Positions 1 through 63,393 of a DNA stretch of 64,000 nt are shown piece by piece. The notes beneath the pieces were generated by a model. That model made no database searches. It saw only the letters and a list, made by a program, of their open reading frames with translations, and was not told the DNA's origin. Source of the stretch: Eledone cirrhosa (Eukaryota); contig OZ024750.1 in assembly GCA_964016885.1 (NCBI GenBank), forward strand, positions 25,110,001 through 25,174,000, in the 5' to 3' direction. A program made the translations under genes and the position numbers. The first letter of the stretch is position 1; every line of letters begins with the position of its first letter.

Positions 1-3000
1 GCTCATACAGGAACTGATCTGGCTTGATTTCTACAGCTGGATGCCCTTCCTAACACCAACCTCATTTACAGTGAGTGCTGGGTGCTTTTTCGTGGCGCCT
101 ACACGTCCACTTTACAGTGTGGGCTGGGTGCTTTTTTGCCGTGGCACCTCCACGACCACCTTGCGGTGGGGGGGGGGGGGGGGGGGGCATATTGTTTATA
201 TGCTTCAGCATGTACCCATGGGAGGTCGGGTACCCTGTATTACTGCGTGACGCCAGAAGTCACGGTCGTGTGTCATTGACTTTGAGAGGTGTAGTTGGGT
301 AAGGTCGGCTTTTATCACCTCATCCCAAGTCATCTTGGGTCTCCCCACTCCGCGGTTTCCATCAACTTCTAGTGCTCTGCACCTTTTTATGCAGCTGTCA
401 TCCTTCATACGCATCACATGTCCATACCAGCGTAACCGCCTCTCCTGCACGCAGCATTTGATTCCTCTTATGCTCAGTCTCTCTCTCAATTCATTTATGC
501 TTTGTCGTTCACGTATATTACTGTTACACATCCATCGGAGCATGCAGGCTTCGTTTCTCTCTAATCTACGTAAGTCTTCCACCTTCAGCGCCCAGGTCTC
601 ACTACCATGCAACATCGCTGTTCGGATACACGCATCATACAGTCTGCCTTTCATTCTGAGGGAGAAGCCTTTTGCAGCTAGCAGTGGTAGTAGTTCCCTA
701 AACTTCTTCCATCCCGTTCTTACCCTAGTTATTGTACTTTCTGAGCACCCACCTCCGTTGCTAATTCGGTCACCTAGGTAGCAGAAGCTGTCTACTGTTT
801 CTACAGGGCCCTCCCAGAGATTGGTGGTACTTGTTTCCTGTGGCTGTTTGCTTGCTGTTTCAGCACAGCTGCTGCATGTGAATCCTACATTCTTAATTAA
901 GCTTCCTGAGATCCCGCTACATCTCTTGTGTACCCATTGTTTGCATTTGGGGCAAAGAATGGAGTTCCTACCTACACCTTTCCTACATACTGAGCAAGGC
1001 CATTTCCCTGAGGGGATCTGGGTTCTGTTTTCTCGTCTACTTATAAGGACCTTAGTCTTTGTCATGTTGACTTTGAGGCCCTTTCTCTCTAGTCCCTGCT
1101 TCCAGGTTTGGAATTTATTCTCTAGTTCTACCATAGATTCAGCTATGAGTGCGAGGTCATCAGCATACAGGAGTTCCCATGGGCATCCGGTCTTAAACTC
1201 CTCCGTTATTGCCTGCAGGACTATGATGAACAGGAGAGGGCTAAGAACAGAGCCCTGGTGGACCCCAACCTGTACGCTAAATTCCTCGCTATACTCATTG
1301 CCAATCCTAACTTTGCTGACTGCTCCCCTATACATGGCTTGTACCGCTTTCACAAGCCATTCATCTACTCCTAGTTTTCTAAGAGCCCACCAGATTACTG
1401 CACGTGGAACTCTGTCAAAGGCTTTCTCAAGGTCGACAAATGCCAAGTAGAGTGGCTTACTTTTAGCTAGGTACTTTTCCTGTAATTGCCTCACAAGGAA
1501 GAGCGCATCAGTGGTGCCTTTCCCTGGAACAAACCCAAATTGCATCTCGTCTATATTCACCCGGTCCCTAATCAGCTGTGCTATAACTCTTTCTGTTACT
1601 TTCATGACCTGGTCCATCAACTTTATACCTCTATAGTTTCCTCTATCTAGTGCATCGCCTTTACCTTTGTAGCAGTTGACAATGATGCTACTGCACCAAT
1701 CTTTTGGTATGGCCCCCTCTAGTATTACCTGGTTAACGATACGTGTGGTTATAGTGTGACCTACAGACCCAGATGCCTTCAGCATCTCGGCAGCTATACC
1801 CGATGGACCGGTTGCCTTCCCTATCTTCATATCTCTGATTGCCTTACTTACTACGCTGCCGCTGACTTGTACTGCTGGTCCCTCTATAGGGTCTACGTGG
1901 GGTAGGGTCTCTTCTTCCCATGCATTCTCCTCATTTAGTAATCTATCATAATGACTCTTCCATGCATCTTTCTTCTCAGCACTTGTGAGGGCAAGCTCAC
2001 CTTTATCATTCCGGATACACTTCTCTCCAATGACATCACAACTATCTCTGACACACTGCCTCGCAATCTTGAATACCTCCTGTTTCTGGTCCTCACGTTG
2101 TAAAACATGCTTGAATTTTCTATCCTCTGCTTCCCTCCTAGCTAAGTATACTTGTCGCCTAGCTTCCCTCTTGGTCTCTATGTAATGTACCCTGCTCCCC
2201 CCGTTCTTCCATTCTTTCCATGCCTGTCTCTTGGCCTTGACTGCTTCATCTACTTTATTGTTCCACCACCAAGTCACTCTCCTCCTGCTTGAGGTCTTAC
2301 TCCAGCCACAAACCTCATCCGTCGCCTCTAGTAAGTTATTTTTTAGGAACTCCCAGTTCTCTTCTACGTTAAATGTCTCTATCTGTTCTTCTTTACTGTC
2401 GTAGGCGTTGAGTAAAATATCTTTAAATCTGTTACTGGTTGAGGGGACTTTCAGCTTCCAGATCTTTCTTCTCCAGGTTGGCCTCTGTTTCAGGGCTCGT
2501 CTAGTTCTGACCGTGAGGTCGCTGACAACTAAGCTATGTTGGGATGTACATTCCTCACTAGGGAAGGCTTTTGTGTTTACGACCGTCCATCTGTCACGTC
2601 CTCTGATGAGAATAAAATCTAACTGACTAGAGTGCTCCCCTGATCTATAGGTGATCAGGTGGTTGTCGGGTTTTTTAAAGTTTGTGTTACATATCGACAT
2701 GTCATTGGCGTCGCAGAATTCTAGAAGTCTGAATCCTTCCTCATTCCTTGTGCCAACTCCATGGCCTCCATGTACTCTATTGAAGCCGTCGCAGTGTTTA
2801 CCTACGTGTCCGTTAAAATCTCCTGCAATGATTAGGAAGTCCTTGTCGTCTGTTAGAGCAGTAGTGTGTATTAGGGACTCGTAAAACCTATCCTTAAGTT
2901 CGTCTGGCAGCCCCGATTGGGGTGCGTAAGCTGATATTATTGTGGTAATTGTCTTATTCAGGACTAGTCTGAGTTTAATGATTCTTGCATTTACCCTGTA

Positions 3001-3570
3001 CACTGAGATTACTTTATCTACCCACTTGTCAGCTAATAGTATACCTACACCACCCATCCCATCGTCGTTTCCCACCCAGAAAAATTTGTAGCACTGGCTT
3101 TTTCCTACAAGGACTCTAGCAGACCCTCCTCTCCATCTAGTCTCTTGCACACAGCATACATCAACTTCCTTTCGCTCTAGCATTTCTACGATTTCTCCTG
3201 CTCTTCCTTTCATTGAGCCTACATTGATGGTACCAACTCGGAGTTTTGGGCATTTGTCGACACTCGTAGGGGAGGGTCTCTGGGTTGGCGCTTCACGTGG
3301 GTGCTTGGTAGCTCGCAGATTCATATTTCATCTATTGATTCAGAGTTGCTCGTGTATTCCCAGCTCATCCATCCATAACGGTGGGAAAATTGAGGGCTAG
3401 AAGGACAGTGGTGGTGGGGTAATGGCAGGGTGTGTTGGGATGCGCCAGAGGAGGAGAGAGTTAGTTAGGCAGGTAGTAGCAGCAGCAGCAGTGGAAATGG
3501 CATGCTAGGTTTGATTGGTCGAATAGACTATGGTGGTGTGTGAGGGTGGGGGGGAGGGAAATTGTGAGGT
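1..3570 (-). mobile_element. RTE LINE body with 3' UTR (running off the window start) and 5' UTR
   Basis: ORF above. Positions 1-204 match the 3' UTR motifs of other RTE copies and SINE tails in the window (cactgtaaatgaggttggtgttaggaagggcatccagctgtagaaa). The 5' boundary is uncertain. Confidence 0.85.
205..3324 (-). CDS. RTE-clade non-LTR retrotransposon ORF (APE endonuclease + reverse transcriptase), intact
   Basis: 1039-aa open frame. APE motifs: TINVGS, VQETR, SAYAPQ, GDFNGH, SQLDFIL, SQH. RT motifs: YRGIKL, QFGFVPG, FVDLEKAFDRV, GVHQGSVLSPLLF, LLYADD, CYLG. RTE-type C-terminus RRLRWYGHV...GRPK.TW. Confidence 0.95.
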   Translation of the reverse strand: MNLRATKHPREAPTQRPSPTSVDKCPKLRVGTINVGSMKGRAGEIVEMLERKEVDVCCVQETRWRGGSARVLVGKSQCYKFFWVGNDDGMGGVGILLADKWVDKVISVYRVNARIIKLRLVLNKTITTIISAYAPQSGLPDELKDRFYESLIHTTALTDDKDFLIIAGDFNGHVGKHCDGFNRVHGGHGVGTRNEEGFRLLEFCDANDMSICNTNFKKPDNHLITYRSGEHSSQLDFILIRGRDRWTVVNTKAFPSEECTSQHSLVVSDLTVRTRRALKQRPTWRRKIWKLKVPSTSNRFKDILLNAYDSKEEQIETFNVEENWEFLKNNLLEATDEVCGWSKTSSRRRVTWWWNNKVDEAVKAKRQAWKEWKNGGSRVHYIETKREARRQVYLARREAEDRKFKHVLQREDQKQEVFKIARQCVRDSCDVIGEKCIRNDKGELALTSAEKKDAWKSHYDRLLNEENAWEEETLPHVDPIEGPAVQVSGSVVSKAIRDMKIGKATGPSGIAAEMLKASGSVGHTITTRIVNQVILEGAIPKDWCSSIIVNCYKGKGDALDRGNYRGIKLMDQVMKVTERVIAQLIRDRVNIDEMQFGFVPGKGTTDALFLVRQLQEKYLAKSKPLYLAFVDLEKAFDRVPRAVIWWALRKLGVDEWLVKAVQAMYRGAVSKVRIGNEYSEEFSVQVGVHQGSVLSPLLFIIVLQAITEEFKTGCPWELLYADDLALIAESMVELENKFQTWKQGLERKGLKVNMTKTKVLISRRENRTQIPSGKWPCSVCRKGVGRNSILCPKCKQWVHKRCSGISGSLIKNVGFTCSSCAETASKQPQETSTTNLWEGPVETVDSFCYLGDRISNGGGCSESTITRVRTGWKKFRELLPLLAAKGFSLRMKGRLYDACIRTAMLHGSETWALKVEDLRRLERNEACMLRWMCNSNIRERQSINELRERLSIRGIKCCVQERRLRWYGHVMRMKDDSCIKRCRALEVDGNRGVGRPKMTWDEVIKADLTQLHLSKSMTHDRDFWRHAVIQGTRPPMGTC

Positions 3571-8232: not shown

Positions 8233-8644
8233 GAACCTTTTTTTGTTTTTATTATTACTATTAATGTTATTTCATTAGATATAACTTAATTCCAAAATCT
8301 GTAATGTGTTAACTCAGATGGTGGTAGGTGGAAGCTGTAGTTAAGTTTAAGAAATTTAAAATTAAATTATTTGTTGAGGTTAGGAAAATGTTTTTTCATG
8401 TAAATTTCTCAATTCTCTGGGATAATGCAGCAAGTTGCCAGAAGATGCAAAACGTTGCATCAAGATGCATTTATATGCACAACGTTGCATCAAGTGTTAG
8501 GAATGTTCTATAGACATTTCTATATTTTTAAAGGAATGACTGCTGAATTATTTATGATTATCTGCTACCAAGTAAATAAAATTTGAGAAAATATAACGAT
8601 GGTAAATGGATGCTTGAGAAAATGTTGGCTGGAGAAGATTTAAT

Positions 8645-8883
8645 TGTTCTTTAGATTTACATGATGTTGGTTATGAAAATGTCATGCTAAGGGTCATTTG
8701 CCTTCTAGAAGTAATAGCTAAATCTTCCTTAAATTACACTTTGGAATACATTTATTTAGTGTATCCTTTAATATTTTGAAAGAAAGTGTAATTTAAGGAA
8801 GATTTGGCTACTACTTCTAGCAGGCAAATTACCTTGTTAGCATCACATTTTCATAGCCAATGTTATGTAAATCTAAAGAACAA
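8645..8883. repeat. Imperfect inverted repeat, ~95 bp arms
   Basis: ttgttctttagatttacat...aaattacacttt (8645-8741) versus aaagtgtaattt...atgtaaatctaaagaacaa (8783-8883). Confidence 0.8.
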
Positions 8884-11874: not shown

Positions 11875-12215
11875 GGAGGCACATGGCTTAGTGGTTAGAG
11901 CATTGGCCTTGCAATCGAAAGCTTGTGAGTTCAATTCTCAGACCGGGTGATGTGTTGTTTCCTTGAGCAAGACACTTTATTTCACATTGCTCCAGTTTAC
12001 TCAGCTGTAGAAATGAGATGATAGGGACTGGGGTCCATATCATTCCACTGTAAAGTGGATGTGGAGGTGCCACGGCATAAAAGCACCCAGCACTCACTGT
12101 AAATGAGGTTGGTGTTAGGAAGGGCATCCGGCTGTAGAAATCAAGCCAGAATCAGTTCCCGTCCCACCCTTGCACACAGGGAAAAAGCAGACATAAAATG
12201 AAATGAAAAAATGAA
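11875..12215 (+). mobile_element. tRNA-derived CORE-SINE with RTE-derived 3' tail
   Basis: A-box tggcttagtgg and B-box gagttcaattct. The segment tccttgagcaagacacttt...ccagtttactcagctgtagaaatg aligns with the MIR/CORE consensus. The tail matches the RTE 3' UTR. Confidence 0.85.
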
Positions 12216-16844: not shown

Positions 16845-17115
16845 GTGGTGGTGGTGAGAATGTTAGGGTATGGTGGTGGTGGCGAGAATGGTAGGATGTG
16901 GTGGTGGTGAGGAGAATGTTAGGATGTGGTGGCGAAAATGGTAGGTTGTGGTGGTGGTGAGGTGAATGTTTGGATGCAGTGGCGAGAATGGTAGGTTGTG
17001 GTAGGGCGAGGAGAATATTAGGCTTTAGGATGTGGTCGGGAGGATTTTAAGATGTCGTGGTGGTGCCGAGAATGGTAGGATGGGGTGAGGAGAATATTAG
17101 GATGTGGTGATAAGA
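16845..17115. repeat. Degenerate G-rich minisatellite (ggtggtggcgagaatggtaggatgt)
   Basis: Imperfect repeats. Confidence 0.7.
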
Positions 17116-17242
17116 ATATTAGACATTAGACAAGATCACACAATCTCTACTCAGAGATGTATGGTATGGTAAACTGGTGCAACTGTTACTAAAGAGTTAA
17201 AAGCAATGATATTCTTCTATTTGCTCATTGGAGCTACATTTA

Positions 17243-18292: not shown

Positions 18293-19113
18293 CTAAGGAC
18301 TTAAGACATTTTGTGTTGTTTTTCTGGGCGGAAGTTGTGTGTTCCTGATCAATTTGACCACTTAACATTTTATCAGTGGTGCTTGTTTTGTCAACTAAAT
18401 CTTTTCATTTTAGAAGTAGCCAATTAAGAAGTCATGACTGTCTTTCCTACAGTTTATACAGTTTAACTATTAAAGTTCTGTGACAATCAGATTGCTTGTC
18501 AGAGCAACATAATGGTTGTGTCAGTGGTATGGATGAAGTAATGTCATTTCAAGTACATCTCTCTAGTGTATATATACATATATGTATATACACACACACA
18601 CATACACACATACACACATACAAACATATATATATTTATATATATAAACGCATACACATAGACCTACATACAAACATCCATAAACACATATACACACACA
18701 CACACACATACATACACGTGTATATACATACCTACCTACATACAAACATACATATATATATATATATATACCTACATATATACATACATACATATATGCA
18801 TACATACATACTACTTTCAATGTGATTGAGAGAAAAAGTTATCTTTTACTATTAGGAGATTGTCATAGTAGTCTGCTGTTTGCTTTGTAGAACATTAATA
18901 AGTTATAAAACCTTTTATGGCGGAGCTGTTGTTTATGTCTGACATAGGTGAGTTACATCATCATCAGCACCGTTTTATGTCCATTTTTCCATGCTAGCAT
19001 GGGTATTAGACACAATACAGCGGTAAAAAGGGGACCTGATTACAACAGCCTGGCATTATAAAAGGATTGTGACACTGCTGATCACAAATGCTAGTCTTGC
19101 TATATATATATAT

Positions 19114-19541
19114 ATAAATGGAAACTATATTTATAAAACCATATTTATTTCATTATACATATTTCAAGGACACCAAAGCAAATTATGGTGCGCTTTCATC
19201 AGATAAAATATAATATAGATCAGTTTTATAAACAGATATTGACATACCCTTAAAAGAATGCAACCATGTCTGTTGGAAGCTCCCGACATGGTCGCATTCT
19301 TTTAAGGGTATGTCAATATTTGTTTATAAAACTGATCTATATTATATTTTATCTGATGAAAGCACACCATAATTTGCTTTGGTGTCCTTGAAATATGTAT
19401 AATGAAATAAATATGGTTTTATAAATATAGTTTCCATTTATTAATATATTGTATTTTTACTCCAAAAATTTGTTGAGTGCTTTATATCAGTTATAAAAAT
19501 ATTTGCTTGTTGTATCCCAACAAATTAAATATAACTTCTAC
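19114..19541 (+). mobile_element. (TA)n-flanked fold-back element (Penelope-like pseudo-LTR remnant) with 157-bp inverted arms and a tail
   Basis: Arms 19114-19270 and 19285-19441, unique tail to 19541, (TA)n on both sides, hammerhead motif in each arm. Confidence 0.75.
19345..19409 (+). ncRNA. Type I minimal hammerhead ribozyme motif
   Basis: tattttat-CTGATGA-aagcacacca..tggtgtcctt-GAAA-tatgta-TA-atgaaata, with an 8-bp stem I. An inverted copy lies at 19146-19210 (-). Confidence 0.75.
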
Positions 19542-19714
19542 ATATATATATATATATATGTATAATAAAATATATATTTTCATTATGAGAATATTTTTCA
19601 TTTATTAACATTTTGAATAATATTAAACACTCCAGGAAAATCTCTTGTCGAGTGCTTCTAATCTATTGTAAAATAGTATTTGTTGATTAATCAATGAACC
19701 ATATTAATGTTTGG

Positions 19715-19756
<42 letters not shown>

Positions 19757-20077
19757 GAACAAAGAATCAGTGTTGCATCATATACATATTTAATTGCGTA
19801 TTACATATGTTTCACTGTCGATCAGCTCAAGGAACGATCGATTAATGATCGATCCTGACTCTGGAATCGGAAGCTCCTACGGGCGCAATTAATTTGTACC
19901 TCTATTATATATATATATATGGTTTTTATTTTTTATGAGGTCTTATATTTGAGAAAGATTAAAATAAATACAATCAAAAATCAAGCTTTTTGAATAACAA
20001 ACAATATATGTATGTGAGTATTTTCTGATTATAGTTTTAATGAGGAGGAGGCTGAGAGTCAAACTTAGTTAGGCAAT

Positions 20078-20282
20078 AGTGGGTACTCTACAGATGGGGT
20101 GGTGAGTGGTGGGTACTCTAGAAATGGGGTGATCTGTGATGGGTACTCTAGAAATGGGGTGGTGGCAGTGGTGGGTACTCTAGAAATGTGGTGGTCAGGG
20201 GTGGGTACTCTAGAAATGGGGTGGTCAGGAGTGAGTACTCTAGAAATGGGGTGGTCAGGGATGGGTACTCTAGAGATGGAGT
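20078..20282. repeat. ~30-bp minisatellite (gggtactctagaaatggggtggtcagg)
   Basis: About 7 imperfect units. Confidence 0.85.
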
Positions 20283-20336
20283 TGTATTAAAATTAGACTG
20301 CTGTGTAACATACTAAATGATCAGTATTCTAGACCT

Positions 20337-29579: not shown

Positions 29580-29783
29580 AACGAAGGAAGTGTGGTAAGG
29601 GACCATGTGGACCATATCACACCAGAGTACTCAATACTTAGGGTAGTAGAGTGGGTAATAGGAAAAGGTTCAGGACCCCGACAGCAGAGCTCAAGCAGTT
29701 TCGATTAAATTCTGGAATTTAGTCCAGAAATAGCCGTTGAAATGACTTGAGCTCTGCCGTCGGGGTCCTGAACCTTTTCCTAT
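29580..29783 (-). mobile_element. (TA)n-flanked tail+hairpin element (family D, copy 1)
   Basis: Homologous to 55605-55775 and 63162-63360. Hairpin at 29658-29783. Strand inferred by analogy with 19114. Confidence 0.7.
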
Positions 29784-29936: not shown

Positions 29937-31770
29937 CAAGGAGATGCCCTAGATAGGAGTAACTATAGAGGCATTAAATTAATTGACCAGGTCATGAAGG
30001 TCACAGAAAAAGTAATAGCGCAACTAATCAGAGAGAGAATTGATCTAGATGAAATGCAGTTCGGGTTTGTGTCAGGTAAAAGTACCACAGACGCTCTTTT
30101 CATTGTATGACAACTACAGGAGAAGTACCTAGCTAAAAGTAAACCCCTATACTTAGCTTTTGTCGACTTGGAGAAAGCCTTTGACAGAGTCCCCCGTTCC
30201 ATTATCTGGTGGGCTCTTAGAAAACTAGGTATTGATGAATGGCTTGTGAGAGCTATACAAGCCATGTATAAAGAAACAGTCAGCAAGGTTAGAATTAACA
30301 ACGAATATAGTGAAGTGTTTAGCGTAAAAGTTGGTGTTCATCAGGGCTCCGTTCTTAGCCCCCTACTATTTATTATTGCCCTTCAGGCTATAACAGTGGA
30401 GTTCAAGACCGGCTGCCCATGGGAACTCCTATACGCAGATGATCTAACGCTCATAGCTGAATCAATGGCCGAACTAGAGAAGAAATTCCAAACATGGAAG
30501 CACGGCCTAGAATCAAAAGGCCTTAAAATTAACCTGTCTAAGACTAAAGTTCTAGTTTGTAGGAAGGAAAATAGGGCACCGGTCCCATCCGGGAAATGGC
30601 CATACTCAGTGTGTAAGAAAGGAGTAGGTAGAAACTCCATTTTATGTCCCAAATGCAAAGTATGGGTGCATAAAAGATGTAGTGGGATCACAGGTAGGCT
30701 AACTAAGAACATAGATTTTATATGTGGCCGGTGCTCTGGTGCAATAGGTAGCAGCAAGTGCCCACAGAATACTAGCTCATTCCATTGCACAGATGGTTCT
30801 ATAGAAATAGTGGACAGCTTCCGTTACCTGGGTGACAAAATCAGCAGTGGGGGAGGGTGCTCTGAAAGTACAGTAGCTAGAGTCAGAACTGGAGGGAAAA
30901 AGTTCAGAGAGCTTATACCACTATTAGCCGCTAAAGGGTTCTCCCTAAAAATGAAAGGCAGGCTGTATGATGCCTGCATACGAACAGCAATGTTGCATGG
31001 CAGTGAGACCTGGGCATTGTGTGCAGAGGATATACGCAGACTGGAGAGGAACGAAGCTTGCATGTTCAGCTGGATGTGTAATAGTAATATACGTGAACGG
31101 CAAAGCATAAACGAACTAAGGGAAAAATTAGAAATAAGAGGGATCAGATGTTGTTTACTCGAGAGAAGACTACGTTGGTATGGTCACGTGATGCGCATGA
31201 AAGACGACAGCTGTATAAAAAAGTGCAGGGCAATAAAAATAGACGGTAGCCACGGAGTAGGCAGACCCAGGAAAACCTGGGACGACTTGATAAATTCCAA
31301 CCTCACACACTTACACCTCTCCAAGACAATGTTACTGGACCGAGATCTTTGGGGCTACACAGTAATAGAGAAGACCCGCCTTACATAAGTACAAAGTGAA
31401 ACCTACTACAGTCAGTAGGCACCTCTAACAAAATACACCCCCGTCCCACTACCCCCATCCCATCCACACCACCCCTTTCAATGTAAAGTGGTACCACAAC
31501 ATCCAGTCTGAAAGAAATGAGGTCGTGTAGGTCTCACAACAAAAAAACACACAGTCCACGCTGTAATGTGGCCGTGTAGGTAACACGGTAAAAACCTCCC
31601 AGTTCCACACTGTAAATGTGGTTGGTGTTAGGAAGCTGGGGCATCCAGCCGTAGAAAACCCGCCAGACAGTCCTATACGAGCAAGCCAACCACTCTTGCC
31701 TCAAGTAGGAAAACTCCCGTCCAAACCCATGCAAGCGTGGAATATGGACGTTAAACGATGATGATGATGA
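29937..31770 (+). pseudogene. 5'-truncated RTE LINE (RT, PHD-like insert, 3' UTR, (gat)n tail)
   Basis: ORF 30168-31388 is closely similar to the 205-3324 protein. There is an upstream in-frame TGA near 30108, and the first PHD Cys is replaced by Tyr (WPYSVC). Confidence 0.9.
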
Positions 31771-38096: not shown

Positions 38097-38790
38097 CAGT
38101 ATTGGTAGAGGGTCGGACATCATGCTTTGCAGTATAGAGTTACGCCCCTTTATAGTCTGAGTTCAAATCCTGCCGAGGTTAACTTTGCCTTTCATCCTTA
38201 CGAGGTCGATAAAATAAAGTACCATTTGTACTGGGTAATTTCTGGCCTTGTGCCAAAAGTAGAAGCAATTATATATAATTGTTTCTACTTTTGGCACAAG
38301 GCCAGCAATTATCCCAGAGTATTACTGGTTCTTTATTTTATCGACCCCGTACGAAACAATTATATATAATGACTGATAGTTATAAATAAAGTGTGATAAT
38401 TGAAAATAAAGTCTGATAATCTTAAATAATTGTTTCTACTTTTGGCACAAGGCCATCAATTACCCAGTGCATTACTGGTACTTTATTTTATCGACCCCGT
38501 AAGGATGAAAGGCAAAGTTAACCTCGGCGGGATTTGAATTCAGAGGTTAACTTTGTCTATGACAAATAATGAAGATAAAGGGTCGGACGTCAAAGCATGG
38601 CGTCCGACCCTCTACCGATACTGCCAATCTACCGCCCTTAATCTTAAATAATTGTTTCTACTTTAGGCACAAGGCCAGCAATTACCCAGTGCATTACTGG
38701 TACTTTATTTTATCGACCCCGTAAGGATGAAAGGCAAAGTCAACCTCGGCGGGATTTGAACTCAGATCGTAAAGGGACGTAACTATGCCT
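38097..38790. mobile_element. Meta-like SINE cluster in mixed orientation
   Basis: Plus copy at 38097-38270, minus copies at 38277-38350, 38428-38640 and 38650-38790. Confidence 0.8.
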
Positions 38791-43435: not shown

Positions 43436-43597
43436 ATATGTTGATTTAAAACTTCACTATTCACAAGTGTTCTTTAAGCTTCATATCATGTCTCCCAATT
43501 TTATCTGATGAGAACGCAGATATCATGCCATGATGATATGATTTTGAAATGCGCATAATAAAATACTTGGAACTCTTTTAACCACCTTTCGATCTTA
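43436..43597 (+). mobile_element. Hammerhead-bearing element ending at (TA)n (family E, copy 1)
   Basis: Homologous to 56537-56700 (-). Confidence 0.7.
43498..43564 (+). ncRNA. Type I minimal hammerhead ribozyme motif
   Basis: attttat-CTGATGA-gaa...ttt-GAAA-tgcgca-TA-ataaaat, with palindromic stem III ATGCGCAT. Confidence 0.75.
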
Positions 43598-44645: not shown

Positions 44646-45623
<978 letters not shown>

Positions 45624-45675: not shown

Positions 45676-45735
45676 CTTTATTATATATATTTCGAAGGTA
45701 TGTTTTTTTTTCCAGTACGTCCTCGTCAGATAAAA
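45676..45735 (-). ncRNA. Type I minimal hammerhead ribozyme motif
   Basis: Minus strand ttttat-CTGACGA-gga...ttc-GAAA-tatata-TA-ataaag. Confidence 0.6.
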
Positions 45736-52004: not shown

Positions 52005-52027
52005 ATATATATATATATATATATTAT

Positions 52028-52178
52028 AATTGTTTCTATATTTGGCACAAAGCCAGCAATTATCCCAGTGTATTACTGGTACTTTATTTTATCGTCCCCG
52101 TAAGGATGAAAGGCAATGTTAACCTCGGCGGGATTAATACCAGGACGAATGGTTACTCCTTCATTACGTTTATTGGAG

Positions 52179-52211
<33 letters not shown>

Positions 52212-52415
52212 TTCATTATATAAATGGGCGGTGGATTGGCAGTATCGGTAGAGGGTCGGATGCCATGCTTTCCAGCATAGTTACGTCCCTTTACAATCTG
52301 AGTTCAAATCCCGCCGAGGTTGACTTTGCCTTTCATCCTTACGGGGTCGATAAAATAAAGTACCAGTAATGCACTGGGTAATTGCTGGCCTTGTGCCTAA
52401 AGTAGAAACAATTAT
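52028..52415. mobile_element. Divergent pair of Meta-like SINEs (minus partial 52028-52133, plus full 52227-52415)
   Basis: Family consensus. Confidence 0.8.
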
Positions 52416-52922
52416 TCATTATATAAATATATATAATGTATATGTATAGGTTTGCATGTGGGTGTTTGTATGTGTAAAAATTTGTGTGTGTTTACACATG
52501 TGGATATTTGTGTGTGTGTTTACACATGTGGATATTTGTGTGTTCACATGTGGGTGTTTGCATGTGTACACATGTGGGGTTTTGTGTATGTACATGCAAA
52601 GGCGCATGCGTGCGTGTGTCTGTGTATATGTGTGGTTCTATAGTAGTGTATTTATGATGTTGAGTAGTATACGTGTGAGTCTTGAATGGAGAAACTTTGA
52701 GAGCCCTGACTTCTGTCAATCGATTGATCTGTCGAACAATCGATTGATCTGTTAAGATAGAAGTTGGAAACAAACACCACAGCTTGTTGCTATGGTTAAT
52801 TTGGTTAATTTCAAAGACTTCAAAATAAATTAAGAAATAGAAAACAAAAACGTAAAGAAAAAGATTCCAACTTTCTTAGAAAAATGTCAGAATGTCAATG
52901 AAAGTTCATTTTCAAACTGAAC

Positions 52923-56103: not shown

Positions 56104-56445
56104 GGAGGCACATGGCTTAGTGGTTAGAGCATTGGCCTTGCAATCGAAAGCTTGTGAGTTCAATTCTCAGACCGGGTGATGTGTTGTTTCCTTGAGCAAG
56201 ACACTTTATTTCACATTGCTTCAGTTTACTCAGCTGTAGAAATGAGATGATAGGGACTGGGGTCCCTATCATTCCACTGCAAAGTGGTCGTGGAGGTGCC
56301 ACGGCAAAAAACCACCCAGCACTCACTGTAAATGAGGTTGGTGTTAGGAAGGGCATCCAGCTGTAGAAATCAAGCCAGAATCAGTTTCCGTCCCACCCTT
56401 GCAAGCAGGGAAAAAGCGGACGTAAAATGAAATGAAAAAAAAATG
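56104..56445 (+). mobile_element. Full-length CORE-SINE with RTE tail
   Basis: Homologous to 11875-12215. Confidence 0.88.
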
Positions 56446-57825: not shown

Positions 57826-58177
57826 GGAGGAGGTTATAGTTCACTTGAAGCATTGTGTAATGAGGTATAAACGTTTGTATATGTATAATAAAGCCAAAAC
57901 AATGCAGGTATGGACATAGAATAAAGAATGCAAATGCAAAAGATATTGTTGACAATTAGTCTTTTACCTTTTACCTATCAGCATGACTTGGCAAGCTATT
58001 TAGAACACTGGTTTGAGACCTTTACTTCCCTCTGAAGAAGAGATATTATCTCGAAAATTAAGGACATTTAAATAAATCTAAGGTAAAAGACTAATTGTCA
58101 ACAATATCTTTTGCATTTGCATTCTTTATTCTATGTCCATACCTGCATTGTTTTGGCTTTATTATACACATACAAAC

Positions 58178-58184
<7 letters not shown>
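57826..58184 (-). mobile_element. (TA)n-flanked fold-back element with 105-bp arms and a candidate hammerhead in the spacer
   Basis: Arms 57866-57970 and 58080-58184, tail 57826-57865. The motif cct-CTGAAGA-a-gagat-att-atctc-GAAA-atta-agg is at 58029-58063 (+). Confidence 0.65.
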
Positions 58185-63130: not shown

Positions 63131-63393
63131 TTATAGGTGATATATATATATATATATATATAACGAAGGAAATGTGGTAAGGAACCAGGTGGACCATAAC
63201 GCACCAAAGTACTCAATACTTGAGGTAGTAGAGTGGGTAATAGGAACCAGTAAGACCCCGACAGCTGAGCTCAAGCCGTTTCGACGGCTAATTCTGGACC
63301 GTCCAGAATTAGCCGTCGAAACGGCTTGAGCTCAGCTGTCGGGGTCTTACTGGTTCCTATATATATATATATATATATATATATGCATTATAG

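Follow-up and report, generated by a model that had tools for sequence, protein, structure and literature searches.

A Hydra-clade Penelope-like retrotransposon stub in Eledone cirrhosa: two head-to-head pLTRs and their likely origin from two reverse-transcription starts

Penelope-like elements are the closest relatives of telomerase. Their Hydra clade (Craig et al. 2021, PMC8557442) is marked by an RWK motif, DKT replacing DKG, a CxCX5C linker and CxxC plus CxH motifs, with the CCHH motif absent; this account, like the others cited here, is drawn on in excerpt. Elements of this clade (for example, Hydra-1_Obim and Hydra-2_Amil) are <3 kb long, carry a hammerhead in the pLTR, occupy (TA)n targets and feature an inverted 5′-truncated copy and a one-sided tail. 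How such inverted end repeats with a one-sided tail are built in Penelope-like elements is called undefined in the same excerpt. A head-to-head pLTR pair with one tail is the arrangement drawn for Penelope elements both there and in PMC3846280, and it is found in Pen2a_Av of Adineta (PMC3846280) and in Penelope of Drosophila virilis (PMC2377424). In these insertions the arms are offset by ~15 nt at the junction and the pLTR holds an initiator-like site (TCACT is named for Adineta), behind which a splice-donor-like site follows after 46 nt in D. virilis.

The hammerheads of Schistosoma and other metazoan Penelope elements (PMC4209133) combine a type I core with a short palindromic helix III and a long helix II; in Schistosoma the dimer-type ribozyme is reported to be inactive as a monomer, and opposite-strand hammerhead pairs 100-700 bp apart are known. 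In vitro, the anole Penelope protein (Poseidon_Ac; Frangieh et al. 2024, PMC11167929) acts on both strands of AT-rich targets, cutting and extending each, with two internal start sites bounding the tail; uncleaved RNA is used, and the ribozyme cuts only with the protein present. Finally, in transgenic flies, siRNA arises from inverted repeats of Penelope (PMC3681739).

Here, a 157-bp hairpin from Eledone cirrhosa is compared with these systems. Judged by sequence, the hairpin is two head-to-head pLTR copies, ORF-less and set in (TA)n, of a Hydra-clade Penelope-like retrotransposon. Our main reading, given a probability of roughly 0.8, is that it is such a pLTR pair and that it likely arose in one insertion event with two reverse-transcription starts. 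The locus itself is ordinary: it is one of many stubs from a clade already described, and neither its kind of ribozyme nor the arrangement is new. Its value lies in the family statistics.

Anatomy of the inserted pair

The window, that is, the whole 64,000-nt stretch of DNA analysed, harbours at 19114-19541 an inverted repeat whose arms (19114-19270 and 19285-19441, 157 bp each) enclose a 14-nt loop. Arm comparison found exactly three mismatches (19191/19364, 19235/19320 and 19262/19293), in agreement with the sequence-only reading, an earlier one that had described a 157-bp hairpin with a 14-nt loop and about three differences; a second inverted-repeat run lengthens the arms to 165 nt, reaching the AT-rich flanks. 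Since the arms are 1.9% apart, with two of the three changes at CpG sites, the insertion appears young.

Two parts of the locus had gone unrecognised in the earlier reading. The loop (19271-19284) belongs to the element itself, read on the minus strand, being the reverse complement of the sequence immediately 5′ of the 19285-equivalent base in longer copies, and 19442-19541 is the element tail. The left arm plus the loop thus read as one uninterrupted copy of the element on the minus strand (~19271 to 19441); the copy on the plus strand is the right arm (19285 to 19541). The insertion is a tail-less short arm and a tailed long arm, head to head, with a (TA)n tract on either side:

19101-19113, no strand: (TA)n target tract, left flank (sequence; (TA)n terminates nearly all family copies)
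19114-19284, minus strand: short arm, an inverted pLTR copy without tail, element positions ~19271 to 19441, including the 14-nt loop (arm comparison; loop match in longer copies)
19146-19210, minus strand: type I hammerhead core, mirror copy (descriptor scan)
19271-19284, minus strand: hairpin loop, the 14 native bases by which the short arm extends further 5′ than the long arm; head-to-head junction at 19284/19285, one base shared (comparison with longer copies)
19285-19541, plus strand: long arm, pLTR plus tail, 98.4% identical to the terminal pLTR that closes the RT-coding copy L110
19308-19313, plus strand: splice-donor-like GTAYGT, retained in diverged subfamilies (sequence comparison)
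19345-19409, plus strand: type I hammerhead core of the dimer kind, with cleavage predicted after A19401 (descriptor scan, family comparison)
19451-19454, plus strand: short 3′ end of the family, putative reverse-transcription start 1 (43 of 88 loci end here; loose (TA)n ends in public contigs)
19455-19541, plus strand: tail of ~87 nt, stopping at the long 3′ end, putative start 2 (42 of 88 loci end at 19533-19541)
19459-19478, plus strand: small hairpin with a bulge; a related second copy lies ~8 nt past the long end in full-length copies, outside the window
19542-19559, no strand: (TA)n target tract, right flank (sequence)

The left arm ends 5-13 nt before the usual short end, and in full-length copies the tail extends ~50 nt further, to the ORF start. 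In comparison with the Adineta and D. virilis insertions, the junction offset is similar (14 nt), yet the whole insertion here consists of two pLTR arms with no ORF, and (TA)n hides the target-site duplication; the tail is also longer than the 30-40 nt given for Penelope elements in the excerpted accounts. A non-LTR retrozyme (bioRxiv 10.64898/2026.07.22.740005) was considered as an identity for the locus: as described in the excerpt, these units are likewise non-coding, pLTR-derived and equipped with a type I hammerhead, but their head-to-tail tandem units allow dimer cleavage, whereas the window copy is head to head.

Abutting the right end, 19560-19716 (plus strand) is a stub from a different and more diverged pLTR of Hydra type, with the 3′ half of a hammerhead, a small-hairpin motif and then (TA)n; it begins near the ribozyme cut, the exact junction being masked by the TA tract.

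The parent element

A search of the 3.0-Gb genome with the right arm returned 1087 first-look candidates, the best 41 of which are at 99-100%. Upstream of the longer copies lie ~1.7 kb of untranslated sequence and then a broken RT ORF, itself preceded by a partial direct pLTR copy (L052). Among 20 fetched RT loci, several are organized as pLTR-ORF-pLTR and some have an inverted pLTR ahead (L105, L109, L110, L112, L116 and L122). The same pLTR (94-99%) closes RT-ORF copies and stands ahead of the ORF in a partial tandem, the inverted copy being present in some of them and absent in others (L052, L109, L110, L112 and L122); partial tandems, an inverted 5′-truncated copy and a one-sided tail are all present in the family. 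The RT ORF is absent from the window and was found in other copies; that pLTR and RT ORF were joined by chance nesting is contradicted by the many contiguous copies. A DNA search with sequence from an upstream part of L029 was excluded, since most of its matches belonged to a different nested repeat.

An intact ORF of 742 aa is found at L105:1284-3509, in a related subfamily with a pLTR 88-89% alike. Folded on a 77-sequence alignment, it reaches a pLDDT of 90, and the best structural matches of the predicted fold are telomerase RTs (TERT). Its C-terminal domain is of GIY-YIG type, with Y, YxG, R, H and E invariant in 77 of the 77 aligned proteins. By Pfam, the family's own ORFs match neither RT nor GIY-YIG, and 2 of 18 homologues gave weak GIY-YIG matches; a profile search of solved-structure sequences gave weak RT matches (E 0.6). 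In the predicted protein, RT and endonuclease are separated by an insert that is rich in Asn and folded with low confidence.

The motifs point to the Hydra clade, the published Hydra proteins being compared by eye. The family carries RWR (K stands at that site in 52 of the 77 aligned proteins) and DKT (its T in 67 of 77, its D and K in all), the CxCX5C linker, CxxC and CxH are present, CCHH is absent, and the 3′ flanks are (TA)n, as for a Hydra-clade insertion. With the published clade (PMC8557442, in excerpt) the family thus shares RW(K/R), DKT, CxCX5C, CxxC plus CxH and the missing CCHH, together with the pLTR hammerhead, the (TA)n targets, the inverted 5′-truncated copy and the one-sided tail. 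Hydra-1_Obim is nevertheless a different family, with another hammerhead and another protein (again compared by eye), and the element here is larger, at ~4 kb with its 1.7-kb 3′ untranslated part. The Neptune and Nematis clades were rejected, as their CX2-5CxxC linker and CCHH motif are both missing in the family.

Ends, pairing and the proposed insertion mechanism

A 35-nt piece of the hammerhead core has 879 exact genomic matches. The first 100 of them in contig order, representing 88 loci each chosen with one intact core, were used as the sample. Their 3′ ends fall at two places: 43 are short (~19454), 42 are long (19541) and 3 are other, and loose (TA)n ends were found at both places in public contigs of unrecorded kind. 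A head-to-head partner arm is present in 48 of the 88 loci and an adjacent partner arm is absent in 40; tail-to-tail pairs number zero, and a tandem pLTR pair was found once (L144). Both cores are carried by 16 of the 88 loci, like the window. The ‘recent fold-back insertion' of the sequence-only reading stands as to youth but not as to singularity, the locus being a standard head-to-head pLTR pair.

Among the 48 pairs, 38 are long plus short, none clearly combines two long or two short arms, and 10 have one arm at neither end; in L174 and L199 a long arm is paired with an arm passing the short end, and these are possible exceptions. The odds of 38 out of 38 being long plus short, had the arms picked their ends independently, are ~4 × 10−12. 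Each of the six ORF-bearing copies that were checked has a pair of related small hairpins, located ~7-8 nt past the two 3′ ends, respectively.

The 5′ ends of 36 of the 88 loci lie at 19260-19275, with 27 further in and 25 further out; the pile-up itself spans about 12 nt. When 106 arms were mapped exactly (including 30 loci picked by right-arm likeness, and with some ends defined by substitutions only), a sharp outer edge was seen, with 9 arms at 19264, 1 at 19263 and none until 19251. No pile-up at the ribozyme cut was seen among the 48 partner arms, the nearest ends being 19396 and 19404. The 19264 base is inside a CACTA word that is retained in diverged subfamilies and that we take to resemble an initiator. 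The splice-donor-like site is likewise kept, 44 nt downstream of the 19264-equivalent base, so that both the initiator-like site in the pLTR and the spacing behind it (~44 nt here versus 46 nt in D. virilis, PMC2377424) are close to those of the described Penelope insertions. No spliced genomic copy at the donor-like site was found in the 30 loci examined of 171 matches, nor any splice joint there in public contigs (four runs of unrecorded kind, with a related copy as reference). In this subfamily the 5′ edge is preceded, at a distance of 13-18 nt, by an AATAAA-like word, and the edge could thus be a cleavage site rather than a start.

The mechanism proposed from these observations is as follows. 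RNA would start at the initiator-like site in the element promoter (the 19264-equivalent base), and the RT-endonuclease would cut both (TA)n strands. One DNA end would then prime just ahead of small hairpin 1, giving the short arm, and the other just ahead of hairpin 2, giving the long arm; both copies would run back across the uncut ribozyme toward the RNA 5′ end and be joined head to head through short homologies. Use of the leader start sites would yield a stub, and use of start sites after the ORF a long copy. The hammerhead would be a passenger, simply lying inside the copied stretch.

This scheme may be likened to Poseidon_Ac (PMC11167929, in excerpt), in which both strands are cut and extended at AT-rich targets, two internal start sites bound the tail and ribozyme cleavage is unneeded. 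However, Poseidon_Ac belongs to another clade, and no difference in its start site between strands was reported, in contrast to the long-plus-short genomic pairs here. We lean slightly towards the stricter form, in which both cut strands serve in every Hydra-type insertion, each primed at its own small RNA hairpin (strictly long plus short), with both copies reaching the capped 5′ end of the leader. If true, the two-primer step would account at once for two features of Penelope elements, their inverted pLTR and their one-sided tail. Exact predictions for an in vitro test of Penelope insertion follow from the long-plus-short rule and from the sharp 5′ edge; neither of these, nor the two-primer step, was found in print in the literature searched, which was that outside subscription papers.

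An inverted arm might instead be made from the same element by self-priming, a single cDNA (or antisense RNA) folding back on a junction palindrome, as proposed for Adineta Penelope elements (PMC3846280, in excerpt). The short palindromic words at the 5′ pile-up and the near-perfect palindromic junctions at L002/L003, L006 and L027 are compatible with it. However, the short arm of the window holds 14 native 5′ bases that are missing from the long arm, and since a self-copy cannot hold sequence that its template lacks, they count against self-priming, which alone would also leave the different ends of the two arms unexplained. Moreover, in five loci (L138, L143, L188, L189 and L206) the long arm ends at ~19462-19493, at or past small hairpin 1, and the arms barely overlap or do not overlap. 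Such arms without overlap resemble classical twin priming on one RNA. Self-priming is thus judged unlikely, in favour of two reverse-transcription starts in one insertion event. Arm divergence within the same hairpin is 2.5%, only somewhat below the 3.7% between different hairpins, and a disagreement at a subfamily-diagnostic base was found in 2 of 7 pairs; the two arms of a pair may therefore stem from one RNA molecule or from different ones.

Movement of the entire hairpin as a single non-autonomous element, of fold-back or MITE-like type, is very improbable: the first 100 matches do include 12 exact head-to-head pairs, 8 of which are spaced by 191-249 nt versus 209 nt here, but junctions and arm lengths vary between loci, 40 of the 88 loci are without an adjacent partner arm, and the ends coincide with the two ends of the parent element.

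Ribozyme, duplex and surroundings

A descriptor scan for type I hammerheads over both strands of all 64,000 bases yielded four matches. Among them are the cores at 19345-19409 (plus) and 19146-19210 (minus), both complete and the former with the cut predicted after A19401, just where the sequence-only reading had placed them. The core features CUGANGA and GAAA boxes, an NUH triplet (here AUA) and three helices with helix I open; stem I is of 8 bp, stem II of 3+6 bp, and stem III is formed by an 8-nt self-complementary stretch, a palindrome that includes G-U pairs. That the core is not due to chance follows from the 879 matches, versus 0 for a reversed control, and from its retention in related families: core and self-complementary stem III are kept with other letters in 42 of the 43 distinct types listed from related families in the fetched loci.

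Stem III would be too tight to work within a monomer but is in keeping with the dimer fold of metazoan Penelope ribozymes (PMC4209133, in excerpt), with which the type I core, short palindromic helix III and long helix II are shared. Compared with those ribozymes, the window core, known here from its sequence, has a stem I of 8 bp and carries A-U, not the usual G-C, at pair 10.1-11.1. Related families carry G at 10.1. An A-U pair there is expected to reduce the rate and leave the fold unaffected. This pair and the lack of any match to the Rfam hammerhead models (zero at E≤1 across the whole window) point against a strong ribozyme. The two other descriptor matches, at 43498-43564 (plus) and 45676-45735 (minus), are single type I hammerheads of two further families, each with a self-complementary stem III.

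In the proposed scheme, folding of the hammerhead would need a second same-sense copy (perhaps also the element protein), which the antisense arm cannot supply. In single arms, fold prediction gave pair probabilities of 0.25-0.5 for stem I and 0.56-0.99 for stem II, yet in the hairpin both stems are at 0.0 on either strand. The earlier suggestion that the long duplex could silence the ribozyme thus agrees with the folding model, by which the ribozyme is locked in the duplex; as the antisense arm is transcribed first, the ribozyme fold is predicted to be lost in nascent transcripts too.

It had further been suggested that this duplex lies inside a host pre-mRNA and could feed ADAR or siRNA pathways. 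Read as a host regulatory device, it would turn the ribozyme off there and be retained for editing or siRNA. Besides the predicted loss of the ribozyme fold, the siRNAs that inverted repeats of Penelope yield in transgenic flies (PMC3681739, in excerpt) would speak for such a device. However, a lone predicted dimer-type ribozyme, of a type reported inactive as a monomer in Schistosoma (PMC4209133, in excerpt), probably has little activity to silence, and the insertion is young and, by extrapolation from the 16 of 88 loci, one among a hundred or more. Nor did the placement in a host pre-mRNA find support: the surroundings are repeat-rich, and Pfam recognised no host exon in the 94 of 101 long open frames of the window that were scanned, a scan that short exons would escape and outside which the flanks L053 and L054 lay. 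The sole non-RT Pfam match among the open frames is a tandem repeat. A device of this kind is therefore highly doubtful.

A by-product role is plausible, whereas a selected host role is without support. In a read-through transcript of the inserted pair, the ribozyme is predicted to be locked in the 157-bp duplex, and the by-product could feed small-RNA or editing pathways; siRNA from the hairpin transcript is plausible by analogy, its precedent being that already published in flies. Stubs of this kind, if transcribed, would add perfect duplexes to the double-stranded RNA pool of the host, as may be compared with Penelope in flies.

Several other repeats surround the locus. The window contains LINE-type ORFs with RT and PHD finger at 208-3327 (minus) and 30111-31385 (plus), the former open over 1040 codons and also carrying an AP endonuclease domain. 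Minisatellites lie close by, at 20042-20285 and 17005-17129, with units of 30 nt and about 22 nt, respectively. The tRNA-like matches at 11884-11941, 45322-45379 and 56113-56170 are probably SINE heads, and pLTR copies often have a similar SINE directly at their short end (L019, L020, L021 and L029). Other long inverted repeats were found at 44699-45006, 57866-58184, 63240-63360, 29658-29783, 38156-38544, 52006-52435 and 8644-8883, several of them beside (TA)n; these are probably stubs of further Penelope-like families, and those at 63240 and 29658 represent one family that is also present in L011.
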